Counted from the stretch's first letter, positions 16,978 through 50,706 are shown. The stretch: DNA of 50,706 nt from Campylobacteraceae bacterium (GCA_026993075.1 JALWUQ010000039.1:521-51226), one strand, 5' to 3'. The notes: generated by a model from the letters alone, not told the origin. Program-made: numbers and translations.

Positions 16978-17044
16978 TTTCGTTTTTGCTAATAGGCAAA
17001 GCTTTAACGATGAATTTTCAAAGATTTATATCTTTGAAAAGGAG
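16978..17044 (+). repeat. dispersed intergenic repeat, copy 1 (hairpin + SD of rmuC)
   Basis: TTGCTAATAGGCAAAGCTTTA...TTTTCAAAGAT-TTAT-ATCTTTGAAAA-GGAG; similar copies at 34511-34577 and 50635-50700. Confidence 0.85.
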
Positions 17045-17052
17045 ATTTTAGG

Positions 17053-34420: not shown

Positions 34421-34560
34421 TTTTTATACTCTTGCTGATAGGCAAAGCTTTAGTGAGAGGAATTTTCAAAGATTTTACATCTTGATGATAAACAAAAATT
34501 ATGATTTTTATACTCTTGCTGATAGGCAAAGCTTTAGTGAGAGGAATTTTCAAAGATTTT
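34393..34560 (+). repeat. exact 84-bp tandem duplication
   Basis: 34393-34476 is identical to 34477-34560; ACATCTT occurs at 34393, 34477 and 34561. Confidence 0.92.
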
Positions 34561-34577
34561 ACATCTTTGAAAAGGAG
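34511..34577 (+). repeat. dispersed intergenic repeat, copy 2 (hairpin + SD of methyltransferase); truncated duplicate at 34427-34483
   Basis: CTTGCTGATAGGCAAAGCTTTAG...TTTTCAAAGAT-TTTAC-ATCTTTGAAAA-GGAG. Confidence 0.85.
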
Positions 34578-34585
34578 AAATAAAT

Positions 34586-43332: not shown

Positions 43333-43629
43333 CTATTTACCTATTACCTTACCTATTTGTTTGATTTGTTTATCGCTTAGTCTAGAAGCAAATCCTTTCA
43401 TTATAGAATTTGATTTTGATTTTTTAAAGCTTTCTAATGCTTTTATAATCTCTTTTTTGCTCATATTTCTTACTATCTTAGACCTGCCCAATGCTCTTTT
43501 TTCAAAATTTTTTCCATGGCAATTCTTGCAAACGGAAATGATTGAGGAAAAAGAGGGTGCACAAAGCACAACTAAAGTAAAAGAAATTTTAGATATTGAC
43601 TCTATGAAAAAGACTCTACTAACAGCCAC
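43333..43629 (-). CDS. monoheme cytochrome c (c553-like)
   Basis: CKNCHG, FEKRALG, distal Met in IMKG. Probable GTG start at 43629 with GGAG 8 nt upstream, overlapping the previous gene. Confidence 0.8.
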   Translation of the reverse strand: MAVSRVFFIESISKISFTLVVLCAPSFSSIISVCKNCHGKNFEKRALGRSKIVRNMSKKEIIKALESFKKSKSNSIMKGFASRLSDKQIKQIGKVIGK

Positions 43630-43909
43630 CTGATGGCTCCATTCCAACAAGATAATCACTAATACTTAAAATTTTTCCTTTTTTTGTGATAATGACTTTA
43701 TCTTTTCCGGTATCTGTTTTTACAATGACTTGGTATTTTTTTGATTTAATTTTCTTTATAGACAAAATTTTTATTTTCGCTTGGCCATACTGTTTTATAA
43801 TACTTGATTTTATAACAGGAGGTACTTGAATATTATCTTTTGCCAACAAAGCACTTGAGCTAATCAGTAAAGTAGTTAAAATAAAAATATTTATAAATCT
43901 TTTAAACAC
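43619..43909 (-). CDS. secreted PepSY-like small protein ending ...PSGGC
   Basis: GAGGAG RBS, GTG start, signal peptide; paralog of 43931-44206. Confidence 0.8.
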   Translation of the reverse strand: MFKRFINIFILTTLLISSSALLAKDNIQVPPVIKSSIIKQYGQAKIKILSIKKIKSKKYQVIVKTDTGKDKVIITKKGKILSISDYLVGMEPSGGC

Positions 43910-43930
43910 AATAAACTCCTCAAAATTTTA

Positions 43931-44206
43931 TCAACACCCGTTTCCAACATTATCGCTAAAGGAAAGATCGTTAACAATGCTGTAGATTTTTCCTTTTTTA
44001 TCTATTGTTACCTTATCATGCTCTTGGTTAAATTTTATTTTTACAAGATATTTTCCGGTTTTTAATTTTTTAATTGAAATAAAAGAGATTTTTTTATTTT
44101 TATACTGTTTCATAATACTTGATTTTATGATTTTAGGGATAGATAACTCTTTAGCAAAGACAGAATTTAAACTCATCAAAAAAAGTATTATAAAAATCTT
44201 TTTCAT
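43931..44206 (-). CDS. secreted PepSY-like small protein ending ...VGNGC
   Basis: MKKIFIILF signal peptide (start 44206 or 44221); shares IKSSI.KQY / SIKK / DKV.I.KKGKI.SI with its neighbour. Confidence 0.8.
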   Translation of the reverse strand: MKKIFIILFLMSLNSVFAKELSIPKIIKSSIMKQYKNKKISFISIKKLKTGKYLVKIKFNQEHDKVTIDKKGKIYSIVNDLSFSDNVGNGC

Positions 44207-44242
44207 AAAATCTTTTAACATAGTAAATCTTTCTATTATAGT

Positions 44243-44283
44243 GTGCCTACTAAAAGAAAAGAAGGATAACTTTTAGCAGGCAC
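44243..44283 (-). terminator. 14-bp stem-loop after the molybdoenzyme gene
   Basis: Minus strand GTGCCTGCTAAAAG / CTTTTAGTAGGCAC (one G-U pair); no U-tract; followed by TATAAT (44235-40). Confidence 0.55.
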
Positions 44284-44291
44284 TGAAAAAT

Positions 44292-47200
44292 CTAAGCTTT
44301 AACTAACCCTACAAATGAATCATAGAAAACTGCTGAACCGCCTACTAAATCCTCAAGTGTAGAATTTTTTAAAGCCGTATCAACTTTCATTGACGCATTC
44401 GGACATAGTCCGCTTTCTCTTGCTTTCTCACCTTTTATGACTTTACCATCGATCATAACATCTCTAGCGCCATAAGCCCAGTGGCCAAAACTCCAGGAAA
44501 CATTTATAACTCCAGGTCTTAGTCCCTCAACAACTTCAACTTTTCCTATCATAGGTTTAGTTTTACCATTTCCCAAATCCCAATTTCCGCTTGGATTATC
44601 AGCAGAAACAATTTTTGCTTTATCTCCATTTTTAAAGCCCATACTAAGTGCTGTTTGGCTATTTAGCACAATAGTATTTTCAGGCATTACAGCTTGTAAC
44701 CAATAATCAACAGCTTGAGTTCTTGATTGACCACCTGTTATTGGTTTATAAGTTATAAGACGAAGTGGATAAGCAGAACTTCCAGTAACCGGTTTTCCAC
44801 CATAATCAACCGCAGGATGATACTTACTTATTCCACTAAATTTCTTACCTGTAAAAGAGTGTCTAGTAGTTCCAACCGGCTCACTATAGAAGTTAAACTG
44901 TTTTCCAAATTTATGTAAAATATAAACACTATTTTCTACATTTTTAGTATAATTTGAATAATCTTCACCTCTAACACCACGATTTAGCAAATAGACTACC
45001 TTTTTAAACCAATTCTTACCATTTGCATCTATACAGGCTTTTTCCCATTTTGCTATATCAAATGTAGCTGGAGTCATATGTCTTCTTGCTTTTTTAAATA
45101 TAGCCATCTCTTTATCATCAGCTTCAGGCAAATCATCACCTTTGTGATCTCCTGCAGCCATATTTGCAGCCATTTTGAGAAACCAATCTTCCACTCTTTT
45201 AAGTGGTTTTCCACCTTCAAAAACATTATCCCCATATCCTGGAAGCTTTAACTTTTCAGCAAATGCCAATAACATTGATTCATATCCTGCATGCTGTTTC
45301 TCACCAAATATTTGAACAGTCTCAGTTAAAGGCTCAATTGTAGGTTGTCTCATTTTTGACATTTTTGTAACTGCCACTACTGTAGTGTGTGGTGTCCCCC
45401 ATCTTTCCCAGATTGCATAATCAGGAAAAATATAATCAGCATACATGCTGCTTTCACCAATGGTTACATCATTTGCAACATAAAGAGGAGTCTTATTTAA
45501 ATCAAGTATTGTCTCCATTGACATATGTGCTGCCGGATTTGATAATAAAGGAGTACCCATAACAGTCATTAAAATCTTGATTCCGTATGGATAGGCATCA
45601 TCAAGAGAAGGGATTGCCTCTTGATAAACATTTCCTGTGTGAGGAAACCAAGGTCTTTTAGCAGGATAGCCATTTTTTTGAAAATCTGTACTATTTTCAT
45701 AGTATGAGCCTTCTCTGGTTATTTTATGACCAAATGATTTGGTTTTTCCGGGAAATGCATCTTTTTTAAGATTAAATGGACCACCTTTGCTTCCATCTTC
45801 GTGATAGTGACCGCCACCAGACATTAACCCACCATTATAATCAATGTTTCCAACTAACATATTTAAATATATTACAGCCATACCGTTATAATATCCGTTT
45901 GTATGCTGGACAACACCTCTGTACATCTCAGCACCGACTTGTCTTCCATATTTTTCATATTTAGTGTATTCTCTAACTAATTCAATAATCTCTTTATCGC
46001 TTACTCCTGCTTCCTTTGCCCACTCTTGTATGGATTTACTCATAGCATACTCTTTAACCATCTGTAGTTCAGATTTAACTTTTATGCCATTTAACTCACC
46101 TGAGAAAAAGAGGTCTCCAACAACAGGATTTAGTTTATCATTAGTATTGAATGCTATAGGTTTGCCATTTTTAGTAGTTACAAACTCATCACTGCTTCCC
46201 ATTCCAAGATCGCTTGCTCTTAGTTTTTTACCTGGACCATCTTTATCAAATTTTATCAAGTGTGTTGCACTTGTCCAGCTAAGTTCTTTATTTTTATGAG
46301 CAGCTGCCACATTTGAATTTTCCAAGAAAGATTTTCTTATCTTATTGTTTTCAAACATCCATCTTATCATGCCATAGATAAGAGCAGCGTCGCCACCTGG
46401 ACGAACCGGAACCCATTTCCAGGCTTTAGCAGCTGTTTTGGAAAATCTTGGATCTACGACAGCTATCTTGTATCCATCTTTTATAATGGCATTTGTCATA
46501 AGATTTGCCATTACAGGAGGTCCAAAATTTGCCTCAACTGCACCTGTTCCAAAATATATTACAAATCTTGAATTTCTAAAATCAGGTTTTAACTGTTCAC
46601 TAGCAGGTTTCCATTTTCCGCCACCAAGATACTGGCTTGTAACTTGCTTGTATGCTATATGGTGAGACTGTTCGCAAACTGTTGTGTGTTCCATAAAATT
46701 TATACTACCATAAGCAGCTTGTTGCCATCTTTTTGCGAACTCTTTTCTTCCGTGCTCCATTCTTCCAGCAAGCATCAAGCACTGGTTATTTTTTGGACCA
46801 TGATCTGGTTGGTCTGGATTTATCAAATAATGTAAATTGTCTTTATGTTTTGCTTTGAAAGCGCTAAGACTCATTTTGCCTTTTCCTACATTCATGGCAT
46901 CTCCTGCCATCTCTTTTGCTATTTTAGGATCTTTTAAAGCTCTTACTTGTCTAAGTCCTTCTACAACTCTGTTTTCCTCACCTGGGACATTGGCAAAAAG
47001 TTTACCACCTTCGACTACTTCTGTGACAGCTTGATCAAATGGTATAACTTTCCATTTATTTTCACCTCTTTTACCGTCTCTTTTTAAAACTTTTACTACT
47101 CTGTAGGGATCATACATGGTTTGGATTCCAGCTTGTCCTTTAGGACAGATTCCGGCATCTATCTTGGCTCCGACTTGAACATCAGTTGATGTTGGAATCG

Positions 47201-47483
47201 GGGAATTTAAGTTTTGAATTGAGTAAGGATTGCCATCAATCTTAACTGCAACTCCATCTTCAATCTTAACTTTGATAGGACAATCTGTATGACACTGAAG
47301 ACAAACAGAATAAATAACATTTTCGGCATCATTTAAAGGATAGTCTATATGACTTCTTCCAAAACCAGAAGTTTTTACCGTTTCAATGGCATTCAAACAT
47401 GCAACAGACCCACCCAGTAAAGCAGAAGTCTTTAAAAAAGCTCTTCTGTTCATTGTTTTATTTTCTATATTTTTACTTTTCAT
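44292..47483 (-). CDS. Mo/W-bisPGD oxidoreductase catalytic subunit, TtrA/SrdA-like clade
   Basis: Tat signal NRRAFLK; CLQCHTDC...CPKG Fe-S motif; GNPYS; HTTVCEQSHH putative Cys metal ligand; 1063 aa; BCA gene order. Confidence 0.88.
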   Translation of the reverse strand: MKSKNIENKTMNRRAFLKTSALLGGSVACLNAIETVKTSGFGRSHIDYPLNDAENVIYSVCLQCHTDCPIKVKIEDGVAVKIDGNPYSIQNLNSPIPTSTDVQVGAKIDAGICPKGQAGIQTMYDPYRVVKVLKRDGKRGENKWKVIPFDQAVTEVVEGGKLFANVPGEENRVVEGLRQVRALKDPKIAKEMAGDAMNVGKGKMSLSAFKAKHKDNLHYLINPDQPDHGPKNNQCLMLAGRMEHGRKEFAKRWQQAAYGSINFMEHTTVCEQSHHIAYKQVTSQYLGGGKWKPASEQLKPDFRNSRFVIYFGTGAVEANFGPPVMANLMTNAIIKDGYKIAVVDPRFSKTAAKAWKWVPVRPGGDAALIYGMIRWMFENNKIRKSFLENSNVAAAHKNKELSWTSATHLIKFDKDGPGKKLRASDLGMGSSDEFVTTKNGKPIAFNTNDKLNPVVGDLFFSGELNGIKVKSELQMVKEYAMSKSIQEWAKEAGVSDKEIIELVREYTKYEKYGRQVGAEMYRGVVQHTNGYYNGMAVIYLNMLVGNIDYNGGLMSGGGHYHEDGSKGGPFNLKKDAFPGKTKSFGHKITREGSYYENSTDFQKNGYPAKRPWFPHTGNVYQEAIPSLDDAYPYGIKILMTVMGTPLLSNPAAHMSMETILDLNKTPLYVANDVTIGESSMYADYIFPDYAIWERWGTPHTTVVAVTKMSKMRQPTIEPLTETVQIFGEKQHAGYESMLLAFAEKLKLPGYGDNVFEGGKPLKRVEDWFLKMAANMAAGDHKGDDLPEADDKEMAIFKKARRHMTPATFDIAKWEKACIDANGKNWFKKVVYLLNRGVRGEDYSNYTKNVENSVYILHKFGKQFNFYSEPVGTTRHSFTGKKFSGISKYHPAVDYGGKPVTGSSAYPLRLITYKPITGGQSRTQAVDYWLQAVMPENTIVLNSQTALSMGFKNGDKAKIVSADNPSGNWDLGNGKTKPMIGKVEVVEGLRPGVINVSWSFGHWAYGARDVMIDGKVIKGEKARESGLCPNASMKVDTALKNSTLEDLVGGSAVFYDSFVGLVKA

Positions 47484-48652
47484 TTTTCCTCTCCTGCTGT
47501 TTGATATATTGGTAAAATTGCTTTACCTATCATAAATACTAACATGACAACAGCTACGATAAATGACACTACTTGCCATTCCATAATTGATGGTAGATAA
47601 CTAAATGTTAGTCTGCTGTTTACCCAAGCACCAGCGATACCTTTTATTTCCGGATCAAGCATACCAGGAATTACAATATTTAATCTTACTGCTAAGAAAC
47701 TACCTGCTATGAGTAGTCCAGCAAGTGCAATAGCACCTGGTGATTTTGATTTGAATATTAGTAAAATTCCTGGAATTACTACACCGATTAATAAATGAAC
47801 TATCCAAAATGTATACCAATAATGTCCAAATAAAATTTGTGACCAAATGTGTCCTTCTCCAAATTGAGAATAGAAAGTACCCATATATACTTCTGATAAT
47901 TCTAAAATTTCATCTAAAATCAAAAGTGCTAAAGTTGTTTTTCCCAAAAATATCATCATTTTTGTAAAATCATCTTTTGAAAGTTTCGGCCTCCAAATAT
48001 ATGCAACTGTACAAAAAAGTGCACCGCCACTTAAGAATGCTCCAGCTAAAAATACAACCGGCAACATTGGTCCATGCCAATAAGGTTTTGATATCAGATT
48101 TGAGAAGACACCACCGACACCTCCGTGAAATGCAAATGCCAAAGGAATACTCCAAATACCAAATGCTATAAGAATATTTTTAATAGTTTTTCGTTTTTCT
48201 CCTGTAACTTGTTCGTGTCTAATGGCAAAATATAATTCTATACAAAGAGTTACAAAGTATGCACTGTATAAAACAGCCATCCAACCCATCATTGAGTGGA
48301 GATTTGGATCAAGTATAAGACTAAAAGCTCTTAATGGATGTCCGAGATCAACTCCAACTGAGATCATAGCACCGACTAAAGTTGCAATGGCTACTAATAA
48401 AGCCATTTTTCCAACGGTTTTAACAGCTTTTATATGGAAAACATAAGTCATAACAGATATCATTAATGCTCCTGCAGATAAACCTATAAGCCAAATATAA
48501 GATGCAATCCAAAGACCCCAAGGAAAGTATGAGCCATAGTTTGTATGAATATGACCATTTACCAATCTATCTATAAAACCTGGAATTCCCCATGCTCCAA
48601 AACCGATAATTAAAATCCAAGTGATTATATTTCCTATTTTATTTCTTGTCAT
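47480..48652 (-). CDS. NrfD/PsrC family membrane anchor (TtrC position)
   Basis: PWGLWIASYIWLIGLSAG, DLGHPLR, SMM, RLNIVIPG; polytopic. Confidence 0.92.
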   Translation of the reverse strand: MTRNKIGNIITWILIIGFGAWGIPGFIDRLVNGHIHTNYGSYFPWGLWIASYIWLIGLSAGALMISVMTYVFHIKAVKTVGKMALLVAIATLVGAMISVGVDLGHPLRAFSLILDPNLHSMMGWMAVLYSAYFVTLCIELYFAIRHEQVTGEKRKTIKNILIAFGIWSIPLAFAFHGGVGGVFSNLISKPYWHGPMLPVVFLAGAFLSGGALFCTVAYIWRPKLSKDDFTKMMIFLGKTTLALLILDEILELSEVYMGTFYSQFGEGHIWSQILFGHYWYTFWIVHLLIGVVIPGILLIFKSKSPGAIALAGLLIAGSFLAVRLNIVIPGMLDPEIKGIAGAWVNSRLTFSYLPSIMEWQVVSFIVAVVMLVFMIGKAILPIYQTAGEEK

Positions 48653-48661
48653 TTCATCCTC

Positions 48662-49618
48662 CTACTTAATATAATACACACTTGGGTGTGTACCTTCTTC
48701 TTCTTTGAGTCTAAAAGCATTAGGTAGAGCGATTAATTCTGCCACTAAACTTTCAGGATCACTGCCATCTCCAAAATATGTAGCTCTTCCTATGCAAGTT
48801 ACAACACATTCAGGAAGCATTCCTTTATCAATTCTTGGGATACAAAAGTGACATTTTCTGGCATTACCTATAGGAGATTTATCTTTTTCTCTTTTCCAGT
48901 CTTTTGCATACTCAAATGAAGCTTCGTTTTCATATTTAATAGCTTTGGCTTTACCCAATAATGACTCTGGTGCATCAGCAGCATCATCAATATATTCCAA
49001 ACCAAAGTCAAATGTTCTCGCATTATAAGGACATGCGTTTATACAATATCTACAACCGATACATTGATCATAATCAATTACCACGATGCCATCTGGTCTT
49101 TTCCATGTAGCAACAGCTGGGCAAACAGGAACACAAGGAGGTTCATCACACTGCATACAAGGTCGAGGCAAAGTTACATGTCCTACATTTGGATATGTTC
49201 CCACTTCTCCTTGTATTACGGGTCTGTATATGACTCCTGGTGGCAGTTTGTTTTCAGCCGCACAAGAGACAGAACATGCATCACAGCCGACACATTTTCT
49301 CAAATCTATAACCATATTCCATTTTCTTTGTTCAATTGGTTTTTTGAGTGCTCTTTGCATATCTCTCATCATTCTGAGAATTGCATCTTCACCAGGTTGT
49401 TGTGGCGGTAATTTAAACGGTTCAAATGGTAAAGCAACATTTAGATTACTTCCATCTTCTTTTGCTTTGGCTGAAGTAGGAGCTAAAGCACTAATAACTC
49501 CCGTTGCAACCAATCCACCAAATACGCCTTTGCTAAACTTTTCCAGAAATTCTCTTCTGGAACTATCTGTTTCTAAAGTCAACTCTTCGCTAACTTTTGA
49601 AAGCTCTTCTTTGCTCAT
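48662..49618 (-). CDS. 4x[4Fe-4S] electron-transfer subunit (TtrB/NrfC-like)
   Basis: Tat signal SRREFLE; [46 protein letters not shown]. Confidence 0.93.
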
Positions 49619-49690
49619 GGCAACTCCTTTAAAGCAGATTTCAAAATAACAGTATATAATTGAAGTTCAATTATAACTGACCTATATGGC

Positions 49691-49705
49691 GCAATAACTG
49701 TTCCA
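49691..49705 (-). promoter_or_regulatory. sigma-54 (-24/-12) promoter of the BCA operon
   Basis: Minus strand TGGAACAGTTATTGC = GG-N10-GC with the TGGAAC...TTGC form typical of Campylobacterota RpoN promoters. Confidence 0.8.
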
Positions 49706-49760
49706 TATTTTATAGAATGCCTGTATTTAGGCTTTTTAAATTTTTTTAAAGGATTTTAAA

Positions 49761-50627
49761 ATGAATTTTGGACAAAAATTTTCCACAGGTGGTAAAATTT
49801 TTACCACTTTGATTATACTTTTTATGCTTTTTTCATCGGTTTACGCAAAAAAAATTACATTTGCTTTTACAGGTACCACTTTGAAAGAAGATTTAAAAAC
49901 TTATCTTTTGTGGCAAAGATATTTGGAAAAAAATTCTCATTTTGATATAGGGATAAAATTTGCTAGAACTTATGCAGAAGTTATATCAAGTATAAAAGAT
50001 GAAAAAACCGATATTGCTTATGTATGCAGTTCAACTTATATGATTCTAAGAGATAAAAAAAATGCAAGATTATTAGCAATTCCTATAATAAATGGTAAAG
50101 ATAAGTACTACTCTTATGTTATTGCTCTAAAAAAAAGTAAATATAAAAGCTTGCTTGATTTTAAAGGAAAAATATATGCTTTTACTGATCCAGGATCTAA
50201 TTCAGGAGCTATAGCCCCAACTTATTTTTTATTAAAAAAAGGATACAAGGTAAATACTTTTTTTAGAAACTTAGTTTATACTTATGACCATGGCGAATCT
50301 ATAAAAGCAGTAATAGACGGTTTTGTAGATGGGGCAAGTGTGGATAGTTTGGTTTATACACAGTATATAAAAAAACATCCAAGTGCTACAAAAAAGTTAA
50401 GAATTGTTCAAAAGTTGGGATCTTTTACCATTTCTCCTATAGTAATAAGATATAACATCAACAAAAAAGAGTTTAAAAAACTTCAAGATTTGTTTTTGAA
50501 TATGAATAAAACAAAAATAGGAAAAGAGATACTAAATCATTTAAATATTGAGAGGTTTGTAAAACCTTCCAATCAGGAATATACTAAAATTTATCAAATG
50601 CAAAAATATATAAAAGAGCATAAGTGA
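49761..50627 (+). CDS. PhnD-fold periplasmic oxyanion-binding sensor, AioX/ArxX/ArrX-like
   Basis: Signal peptide; RTYAE, DIAYVCSSTY (Cys), YYSYVI, FTDPGSNSG, TYDH..SIKAV..G.VDGASVDSLVY. Confidence 0.8.
   Translation: MNFGQKFSTGGKIFTTLIILFMLFSSVYAKKITFAFTGTTLKEDLKTYLLWQRYLEKNSHFDIGIKFARTYAEVISSIKDEKTDIAYVCSSTYMILRDKKNARLLAIPIINGKDKYYSYVIALKKSKYKSLLDFKGKIYAFTDPGSNSGAIAPTYFLLKKGYKVNTFFRNLVYTYDHGESIKAVIDGFVDGASVDSLVYTQYIKKHPSATKKLRIVQKLGSFTISPIVIRYNINKKEFKKLQDLFLNMNKTKIGKEILNHLNIERFVKPSNQEYTKIYQMQKYIKEHK
49768..49807. promoter_or_regulatory. tandem palindromes, putative enhancer (activator) sites
   Basis: Perfect 19-bp palindrome GTGGTAAAATTTTTACCAC (49789-49807) and degenerate TTGGACAAAAATTTTCCAC (49768-86), 21 bp apart. 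Confidence 0.55.
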
Positions 50628-50634
50628 AGTATTC

Positions 50635-50700
50635 ATTCTCGCCGATAGGTATAGCTTTAGTTCAAGGAATTTTCAAAGATTTTACATCTTTGAAAAGGAG
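50635..50700 (+). repeat. dispersed intergenic repeat, copy 3 (hairpin + SD of next gene beyond window)
   Basis: CTCGCCGATAGGTATAGCTTTAG...TTTTCAAAGAT-TTTAC-ATCTTTGAAAA-GGAG. Confidence 0.85.
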
Positions 50701-50706
50701 ACATTA

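Follow-up and report, generated by a model that had tools for sequence, protein, structure and literature searches.

The window analysed here is a stretch of DNA of 50,706 nucleotides from a Campylobacteraceae bacterium (G000:C39:521-51226; about 30% G+C, in a genome of 1.9 Mb in 88 contigs). Its last part carries, on the minus strand, genes in the order B-C-A-S1-S2-cytochrome c, with the gene of a binding protein, X, divergent from B, as judged by open reading frame (ORF) calls and by Pfam and NCBIfam scans. We propose that the product of this locus is probably a Ttr-like respiratory arsenate reductase that faces the periplasm and depends on quinol, placed under an arsenate sensor of the ArrXSR type that would act through sigma-54. 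A preliminary description of the window had suggested an arsenic-, antimony- or selenium-responsive oxidoreductase distinct from ArrA; our analysis supports this suggestion and narrows it towards arsenate. The same description had presented the system as a candidate non-canonical one; the kind is not new, since Ttr-like arsenate reductases and their link to ArrTSR- or ArrXSR-type regulators are already published (PMC5492636, PMC11462812, PMC12949373; these and the other papers cited were available in part, and statements drawn from them refer to those parts). A Ttr-like arsenate reductase with an ArrXSR-type regulator is thus known as a kind. What is new is the pairing of a native sensor module with an apparently imported enzyme, and a family of small Cys-tailed proteins restricted to the neighbourhood of the A subunit of this type (the window type).

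The best NCBIfam model for the catalytic subunit A is TtrA (NF011567), with 455 bits against a cut-off of 1750, the match covering residues 216-1052 of A and model positions 204-1011 only; PhsA and ArrA give 174 and 125 bits. On the ArrA model (NF041714), the 125 bits are spread over four fragments, versus 1067-1097 bits for ArrA-type proteins of Campylobacterota. A contains the cluster motif C61-x2-C64-x3-C68. When A is aligned with ArrA of Shewanella ANA-3 (6cz7), AGRM faces RGRY and HTTVC faces HSSVC, Cys270 being aligned with the Mo-ligand Cys of ArrA and G240-R241 with the Gly-Arg of RGRY. This Gly-Arg pair, in which R165 of ArrA binds arsenate, is reported to be shared by Arr, Arx and the Ttr-like enzymes that reduce As(V) and to be missing from true Ttr (PMC12949373). 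In a 61-row alignment, the site of ArrA R165 carried Gly-Arg in all 39 window-type sequences, in all eight ArrA and in a third type from genome G031, and in none of the 12 TtrA-like proteins. Two identities were rejected for A: bona fide TtrA, on the basis of the score below the cut-off, the presence of Gly-Arg and the regulators (X, a histidine kinase and a sigma-54 activator), and ArrA, on the basis of the low and fragmentary score.

A tree of A was built from 107 blastp-matched ORFs of at least 740 residues, from which 61 rows were selected and 11 near-copies dropped, leaving 50 (LG+G4, quick search, ArrA-type proteins as outgroup, support by the Shimodaira-Hasegawa-like approximate likelihood ratio test, SH-aLRT). 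The window type formed a clade of 38 rows with a support of 100, and the TtrA-like group formed a separate clade, also with a support of 100. A therefore lies in the TtrA lineage but outside both the ArrA and the TtrA-like groups, the latter being defined by score against a hidden Markov model (HMM). The preliminary description would have been refuted by an A subunit nested within TtrA; instead, A stands apart from the TtrA-like group in the tree and in the scores (455 bits, where 72 other Campylobacterota genomes have TtrA-like proteins of about 890-980 bits). The Campylobacterota members of the window type are set among Calditrichota, Bacteroidota, Ignavibacteriota, Gemmatimonadota and Planctomycetota (support 97), and the nearest relatives of A outside Campylobacterota include Ignavibacteriota and Melioribacteraceae, with 58-59% identity. 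Among the matches listed in a homologue search, two named Sulfurospirillum isolates have A subunits of 79-80% identity. The putative membership of A in the characterised Ttr-like clade is drawn from the motif, the sensor and the gene neighbourhoods and not from the tree.

Within 401 Campylobacterota genomes, a full-length TtrA-like protein was detected in 72 (about 890-980 bits), the window type in three (G000, G075 and G334; 380-392 bits) and the third type in one (G031). Both a TtrA-like and a window-type gene are present in G075 and G334, while an ArrA-type gene is found in 10 of the 401 genomes and in none of the three with the window type. In the control genomes of the family search, none of 14 was over the cut-off for true Ttr. 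The third type (L118:8272-11745) is an open frame of about 1158 residues with 515 bits on the TtrA model; both Gly-Arg pairs are present, and its branch in the tree is long.

The binding protein X matches the solved structures of ArrX (6x6b; 126.9 bits, 9.9e-36) and AioX (6esv; 110.8 bits, 7.8e-31); against PhnD it gives 64 bits (1.5e-16), ArrX being about 20 orders of magnitude better in E-value. X has a single Cys, and the pocket residues that define the AioX subfamily (Y88, C106, Y131, S161, S163, H192 and D210, the Cys being absent from PhnD; PMC5908839) are kept seven out of seven, as Y71, C89, Y116, S146, S148, H177 and D195. In place of the Val-Phe-Leu of the loop that closes AioX over arsenite, X has the polar TTLKEDLK, and ArrX is likewise polar at this position (PMC5908839). 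X thus shows the features of AioX, ArxX and ArrX, namely these pocket residues and a gene that stands near that of a molybdoenzyme, together with genes for a histidine kinase and a response regulator. The architecture of a separate binding protein with a sigma-54 activator, pointed out in the preliminary description, is present, but the argument drawn from it there was overstated: Salmonella TtrS senses tetrathionate through a PhnD-like domain (PMC5408782), so that such a fold beside ttr genes does not discriminate alone. The case for a putative arsenate sensor is carried by the pocket residues, the similarity to ArrX and AioX, and the tree of X.

This tree (38 rows after two near-copies were dropped, LG+G4, quick search) grouped the seven Ttr-like-linked X proteins of Campylobacterota in one clade (support 96), and this clade joined two ArrA-linked X proteins of Campylobacterota in a group of nine rows (support 97), X proteins from other phyla being placed elsewhere. 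Wide flanks were taken for three Campylobacterota ArrA loci. Two of them (G317 and G246) have arrC-A-B with a divergent X-kinase-regulator module whose proteins share 51% and 42% identity with X of the window and 53% and 46% with its response regulator; in the third (G216), no such module was found within the region fetched. The sensor module therefore appears native to Campylobacterota, where it would normally stand beside arrCAB. Taken together, the trees of A and X suggest an imported enzyme under a native sensor, BCA having apparently been acquired from another phylum and having replaced arrCAB. The TtrA-like operons of G075 and G191 have a different pair beside them, a dCache_3 kinase with an OmpR-type regulator, in place of X, kinase and sigma-54 regulator.

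Several observations concern variants of this sensor module. Seven X proteins encoded beside the same enzyme clade (L035:4276-5961, L091:2784-4505, L022, L038, L046, L052 and L079) have Gly or Asp in place of the Cys, and this class may sense a different ligand. Two of the seven, L035 and L091 (Nitrospirota), both scanned, are tandem double PhnD proteins of about 560-570 residues. At L022:2603-4684, the histidine kinase of the module bears a C-terminal MobA-like NTP-transferase domain (molybdenum-cofactor guanylyltransferase type), an unusual union of kinase and cofactor enzyme, and similar blast signals were obtained in L033 and L074. Finally, the arr locus of G317 has, 3' of arrB (L113:13239-15822), a PBP_like_2 gene resembling phosphate-binding proteins and a gene for a methyl-accepting chemotaxis protein, which hints at arsenate or phosphate taxis tied to the arr operon.

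The contig extends 14 kb past the window, and this part contains the kinase and the GAFTGA-bearing sigma-54 activator that had been predicted beyond position 50706, followed by a GGDEF-EAL protein. The histidine kinase (559 residues) crosses the membrane twice, with about 120 residues looping into the periplasm; the response regulator (452 residues) combines a receiver, a sigma-54 AAA+ domain and GAFTGA. The preliminary description had also suggested inspecting this region for ars genes; none is adjacent to the locus in this genome, as detailed below. Between X and the kinase gene stand an 85-nt repeat, 100 N and the last 42 nt of the repeat once more, in that order. As regulator, kinase and X are contiguous and divergent from B-C-A in five related loci (L014, L017, L019, L055 and L116), the adjacency of X and the kinase is taken as real, and the assembly gap is an effect of the repeat, which also ends other contigs. 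This intergenic repeat of about 85 nt (50622-50706) is also found at 34430-34581 and 16979-17045 and in contigs C75, C24, C46 and C37 of the same genome, with about a dozen copies, at contig ends and on both sides of the 100-N gap. It forms a hairpin, TTTCAAAGAT...ATCTTTGAAA, followed by GGAGACATTA, the latter providing the kinase gene with its ribosome-binding site.

The -24/-12 element TGGAACAGTTATTGCG sits about 70 nt before the start codon of B. This element is weak on its own because sites of this kind, with two mismatches allowed, number 28 in the window versus 19 expected by chance. However, its consensus occurs within 200 nt upstream of the candidate B start in eight of the eight Campylobacterota loci examined, and rpoN is present in the genome (333 bits, cut-off 277). 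The components of a sigma-54-dependent operon are thus all present, from the GAFTGA activator to the -24/-12 element and rpoN, and a sigma-54-type ArrR has been reported for Epsilonproteobacteria (PMC5908839). Just 5' of the -24 element, a palindrome of the form CCC/GCC-N8-10-GGG/GGC was seen in the same eight loci (GCCTAAATACAGGC at 49706-49730 in the window), a candidate site for the regulator or for a bending protein.

The features of the locus are collected in Table 1. The layout of the preliminary description, with an Fe-S subunit, an NrfD subunit and a catalytic subunit in ttrBCA order, a sigma-54 promoter, a divergent Cys-bearing protein of PhnD fold, two Cys-tailed secreted proteins and a cytochrome c, was recovered in full. 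The best NCBIfam matches of B are all below their cut-offs (TtrB 178 bits, DsrO 177, ArrB 155), and its Cys residues correspond to four [4Fe-4S] clusters. C shows about 10 hydrophobic segments in a crude hydropathy scan, and the 3' end of its gene overlaps the start of A by 4 nt.

Table 1. Positions of the features of the locus, counted from the first nucleotide of the window
Feature	Position	Strand	Details
X, periplasmic sensor binding protein of PhnD fold, AioX/ArxX/ArrX subfamily	49761-50627	+	288 aa, signal peptide, Pfam Phosphonate-bd 2.1e-54
Sigma-54 -24/-12 promoter element TGGAACAGTTATTGCG, upstream of B	49690-49705	-	TGGAAY-N5-TTGC kept in relatives
B, Tat-exported four-cluster Fe-S subunit (Tat, twin-arginine translocation)	48662-49618	-	318 aa, Fer4_11 1.8e-20, 16 Cys, twin-arginine motif SRREFL
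C, NrfD-type integral membrane quinol-interacting subunit	47480-48652	-	390 aa, Pfam NrfD 1.8e-31
A, Tat-exported Mo-bisPGD (molybdenum-bis-pyranopterin guanine dinucleotide) catalytic subunit, putative Ttr-like clade	44292-47483	-	1063 aa, molybdopterin domains, Tat motif NRRAFLK
S1-type small secreted protein, putative PepSY-like fold	43931-44221	-	96 aa, cleavable signal peptide, GNGC end
S2-type small secreted protein, putative PepSY-like fold	43619-43909	-	96 aa, cleavable signal peptide, SGGC end
Monohaem c-type cytochrome	within 43333-43659	-	CKNCH, start codon uncertain, possibly GTG near 43630

We propose the following mechanism, in which what X binds, what the enzyme acts on and in which direction, and the joint transcription of the operon are all read from gene content and homology. 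Periplasmic arsenate would bind free X, and liganded X would signal to the membrane histidine kinase, which would phosphorylate the GAFTGA response regulator. This regulator would then activate RpoN at the -24/-12 promoter before B, leading to the joint transcription of B, C, A, S1, S2 and the cytochrome c gene. After Tat export, A and B would assemble on C, the NrfD subunit. C would draw electrons from menaquinol, and the four Fe-S clusters of B would relay them to the Mo centre of A for the reduction of As(V) to As(III).

We looked at the distribution of the A clade by a pattern scan with one genome per species, which gave at least 574 confirmed relatives of A in species-representative genomes of many phyla; the best 80 loci were used for neighbourhoods. 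B was present in 60 of the 60 loci with at least 2.6 kb available upstream, and an NrfD C subunit in 41 of those 60. An X homologue was detected in 35 of the 80 loci, and in 28 of the 40 where at least 7 kb upstream of A is available; LuxR-type regulators take the place in some phyla of the clade. Genes of ars type lie near A in 12 of the 80 loci, two of them from close Campylobacterota relatives. For example, arsR-arsC-arsB abuts the regulator in L019 and arsR-arsB follows the cytochrome in L016. Similarly, Deferribacter abyssi has arsR-arsC-acr3 between the regulator and B, and Neomoorella carbonis has ArsP after A. An outer-membrane gene resembling the phosphate-selective porins O and P stands directly before B in 19 of the 80 loci (for example L021:6750-7796). 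These porin-bearing loci belong mostly to the FCB (Fibrobacterota-Chlorobiota-Bacteroidota) group and Calditrichota, and molybdenum-cofactor biosynthesis genes are often found 3' of A in related loci.

The Ttr-like arsenate reductases of Anaeromyxobacter PSR-1 and Geobacter OR-1 were reportedly described by Muramatsu (2020) and Tsuchiya (2019), as relayed by papers that cite them. These Ttr homologues are reported to be induced 14- and 6-fold by As(V) and to reduce As(V) (PMC11462812), and tetrathionate is said not to be a substrate of the PSR-1 enzyme (PMC12949373). Like A, they have a catalytic subunit of the TtrA lineage that is apart from both true Ttr and ArrA and carries Gly-Arg, and the taxa reported in their clade (Chloroflexota, Firmicutes, Desulfuromonadales) overlap with those of the A clade, the two clades being likened by description and not by sequence. 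In the best-80 set, the Cys-tailed proteins and the cytochrome c were found in the Campylobacterota loci only. The 'TtrABC' of Melioribacter roseus is also a Ttr-like molybdoenzyme, encoded next to 'ArrTSR' (a kinase and a response regulator with a binding protein of PhnD-like type) and with arsRPCB nearby, and arsenate elicits a response of its transcript. The authors of that study saw its role as auxiliary or in detoxification, and Cys-tailed proteins are not described in the available part of that paper (PMC5492636).

The ArrXSR-arrCAB loci of Campylobacterota and ArrX of Chrysiogenes arsenatis share with the window the divergent X-kinase-regulator module, the AtoC/sigma-54-type regulator and all the pocket residues. 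However, the arr operon has the order C-A-B and an NrfD subunit of 279 residues, whereas the window has a Ttr-like A of 1063 residues in the order B-C-A. TtrBCA-TtrSR of Salmonella and Shewanella ANA-3 resembles the window in the B-C-A order, the Tat motifs on A and B, the NrfD anchor, the Cys-ligated Mo and the PhnD-type sensing fold. True TtrBCA-TtrSR has a LuxR-type regulator and no Gly-Arg, whereas the window has Gly-Arg, a free binding protein with an AioX-type Cys pocket and a sigma-54-dependent regulator.

S1 and S2 represent two paralogue types whose tails end in GGC and EEGC (GNGC for the S1 type in the window), and all 12 sequences compared end in Gly-Cys. An AlphaFold2 model of S2 (mean pLDDT 81.5) consists of a signal helix, one further helix and four strands, with residues 86-96 as a floppy tail of low confidence. 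Family signals are faint: Pfam PepSY_like was found in four of five small proteins with E-values of 0.0014-0.077, all under the cut-off, and the Atlas scores of 0.77-0.80 serve as leads only. Foldseek gave no match of the S2 model to the Protein Data Bank (PDB) at E <=0.001, the top rows (E >=0.019, the best being 0.019) being N-terminal dimerisation domains of DsbG/DsbC type and DUF2874/BLIP-like proteins. A prediction of an S2-S1 heterodimer gave a score of 0.02 for a mark of 0.32, which weighs neither for nor against binding. SoxY was rejected as the identity of S1 and S2, since no SoxY family appeared even at E up to 10 and their Cys is the last residue, with no GGCGG arm.

The small proteins are confined to a narrow set of loci. 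A profile search in 1.84 billion representatives returned 26 proteins at E <=0.001 and 10 at <=1e-10, and all of these 10 end in Gly-Cys. In the best-80 set, they occur in seven of the nine Campylobacterota loci, the other two stopping within 2 nt after A, and in none of the 71 non-Campylobacterota loci. Strong matches (at least 109 bits) were obtained in only three of the 401 Campylobacterota genomes, directly after window-type A, while ten other genomes gave at most 25 bits. The cytochrome c matches Pfam Cytochrome_CBB3 below the cut-off (8.8e-05); its gene follows those of the small proteins in five related loci, with homologues of 54-92% identity at the same position in L013-L017. S1, S2 and the cytochrome c are all absent from the canonical Campylobacterota arr operons examined. 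The two small proteins and the small cytochrome are lineage-specific additions, and S1 and S2 cannot define the substrate of the clade because they are absent from all 71 loci outside Campylobacterota. In L014:11456-11474, the codons of the Glu-Glu-Gly-Cys tail (GAGGAGGGATGT) double as the Shine-Dalgarno sequence of the cytochrome gene, which begins right after the stop; in the window, where no ATG is in place at 43619-43640, translation of the cytochrome may begin at a GTG that overlaps S2 at its end.

SoxY and Sud are small periplasmic proteins with a single reactive Cys, which in SoxY lies in a Gly-rich mobile C-terminal arm. S1 and S2 are alike in being small, periplasmic and equipped with a single reactive Cys, an analogy that goes without any relation of sequence or fold, as S1 and S2 have a faint PepSY_like signature, a helix with a four-stranded sheet and a terminal Cys. 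With low confidence, we suggest that the flexible thiol tails may serve at the enzyme as binding sites for its product As(III), or for an arsenic or sulfur species carried on a thiol. A more specific role, possible but doubtful, would be that of periplasmic swinging-arm partners of the molybdoenzyme that take up As(III) as a thiol adduct or present an As-S substrate, the cytochrome belonging to the same module. If true, no dedicated periplasmic carrier for arsenic respiration would have been described before S1 and S2. In the literature searched, supplementary files lying outside the search, neither a PepSY protein with an arsenate reductase nor this locus type in Campylobacterota or Sulfurospirillum is described.

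Three other readings of the same genes were considered. The machinery could run in reverse, as an Arx-like anaerobic or microaerobic arsenite oxidase, with X sensing arsenite and the cytochrome c delivering electrons to a terminal oxidase or reductase. ArrA and ArxA are close relatives able to run in opposite directions (PMC7331816), X keeps the Cys that bonds arsenite in AioX (PMC5908839), and a monohaem cytochrome c is not obviously needed by an NrfD-linked quinol reductase. However, the Cys is also kept in arsenate-binding ArrX, the polar loop of X is that of ArrX rather than that of AioX (PMC5908839), X is nearer to ArrX than to AioX with X proteins beside ArrA-type genes as its nearest kin, and those Ttr-like enzymes that have been characterised reportedly work as reductases (PMC11462812, PMC12949373), all of which makes the reverse direction quite improbable. 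We also judge it unlikely, to a slightly lesser degree, that the enzyme acts on a different oxyanion of like shape or chemistry, for example selenate (the substrate of SrdBCA), antimonate or tellurate, with a retuned X and thiol tails handling the Se or Sb product. Thiols react readily with selenite, and X weakly matches a model for putative selenate-binding proteins (TIGR04553; 82 bits, cut-off 250). The TtrA/SrdA lineage includes the selenate reductase SrdA (PMC7331816), and the pocket residues alone do not determine selectivity in the AioX subfamily (PMC5908839). On the other hand, AioX, ArxX and ArrX bound neither selenate nor antimonite in published tests (PMC5908839), X groups with ArrA-linked sensors, the resistance genes beside relatives are of ars type (arsR, arsC, arsB or acr3, arsP), and phosphate-type porins suit arsenate as a phosphate analogue.

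Finally, the enzyme could be a reductase of a sulfur compound (tetrathionate, thiosulfate or polysulfide), with the Cys-tailed proteins as Sud- or SoxY-like carriers to the Mo site, which appears very unlikely. Such a carrier role would draw on the terminal Gly-Cys on a disordered tail, as in the SoxY arm, and locus DNA is present in sequencing runs labelled hydrothermal vent metagenome, settings that are typically sulfidic; RNA runs carrying the locus were not found among the sequencing runs listed. TtrA is the top model for A, the gene order is that of ttrBCA, and tetrathionate is sensed by TtrS through a PhnD-like domain (PMC5408782). But A is without the TtrA-like sequence pattern and has the Gly-Arg of arsenic enzymes, the separate TtrA-like operon of G075 has a different regulator, and the Cys-tailed proteins are absent from 71 of 71 non-Campylobacterota loci. 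In addition, neither thiosulfate nor tetrathionate was a ligand of AioX, ArxX or ArrX in published tests (PMC5908839), and the PSR-1 enzyme is reported to be inactive on tetrathionate (PMC12949373).

Several points weigh against a Ttr-like arsenate reductase under an arsenate sensor. The TtrA-like comparison group was set by HMM score (about 890-980 bits, below the cut-off of 1750) and not by experiment. The proteins of PSR-1, OR-1 and M. roseus (MROS_1076) are not among the 120 matches listed in the homologue searches, and in further searches seeded with Myxococcales and Melioribacteraceae relatives those of PSR-1 and M. roseus were not among the matches listed either. A could also fall beside SrdA, the selenate reductase of the same lineage, which is absent from the tree of A. 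The flexible Gly-Gly-Cys tail, in its resemblance to sulfur-carrier arms, would fit a sulfur substrate. Seven of the 40 X proteins compared are without the pocket Cys, and Arg or Lys replaces their pocket Asp; 11 of the 40 loci with long upstream flanks show neither X nor a regulator, so that the A clade is not uniformly wired. In the present assembly, the junction between X and the kinase is broken by the repeat and the 100 N. No ars gene is adjacent to the locus in its own genome, where ArsB (469 bits) is encoded on another contig; Acr3 was not found there by tblastn with Deferribacter Acr3 or with the Acr3 family model, and a gene of low-molecular-weight (LMW) phosphatase type (C36) and an ArsR-family gene (C74) lie outside any recognisable ars operon. 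Lastly, the authors of the M. roseus study preferred a Psr/Phs-type enzyme as the main arsenate reductase, the induction of the Ttr-like gene being not clearly significant (PMC5492636).

The mobilisation of arsenic is usually tracked by arrA, and Ttr-like genes have been argued to be able to dominate respiratory arsenate reduction in paddy soil (PMC11462812). The locus described here extends the Ttr-like enzyme type to vent-associated Campylobacterota and adds to it a very small family of Cys-tailed proteins strictly tied to the window-type enzyme. Since the ArrXSR sensor of the phylum is wired here to a different, apparently imported enzyme, this exchange is a clean natural experiment and provides strong circumstantial evidence that both enzymes have the same substrate. 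A 2026 paper on vent Sulfurospirillum genomes lists ttrABC under sulfur respiration and, in the part available, does not distinguish the Ttr-like type (PMC13209400). Genome papers list such genes as ttrABC of sulfur respiration, and arsenic metabolism may therefore be under-called.

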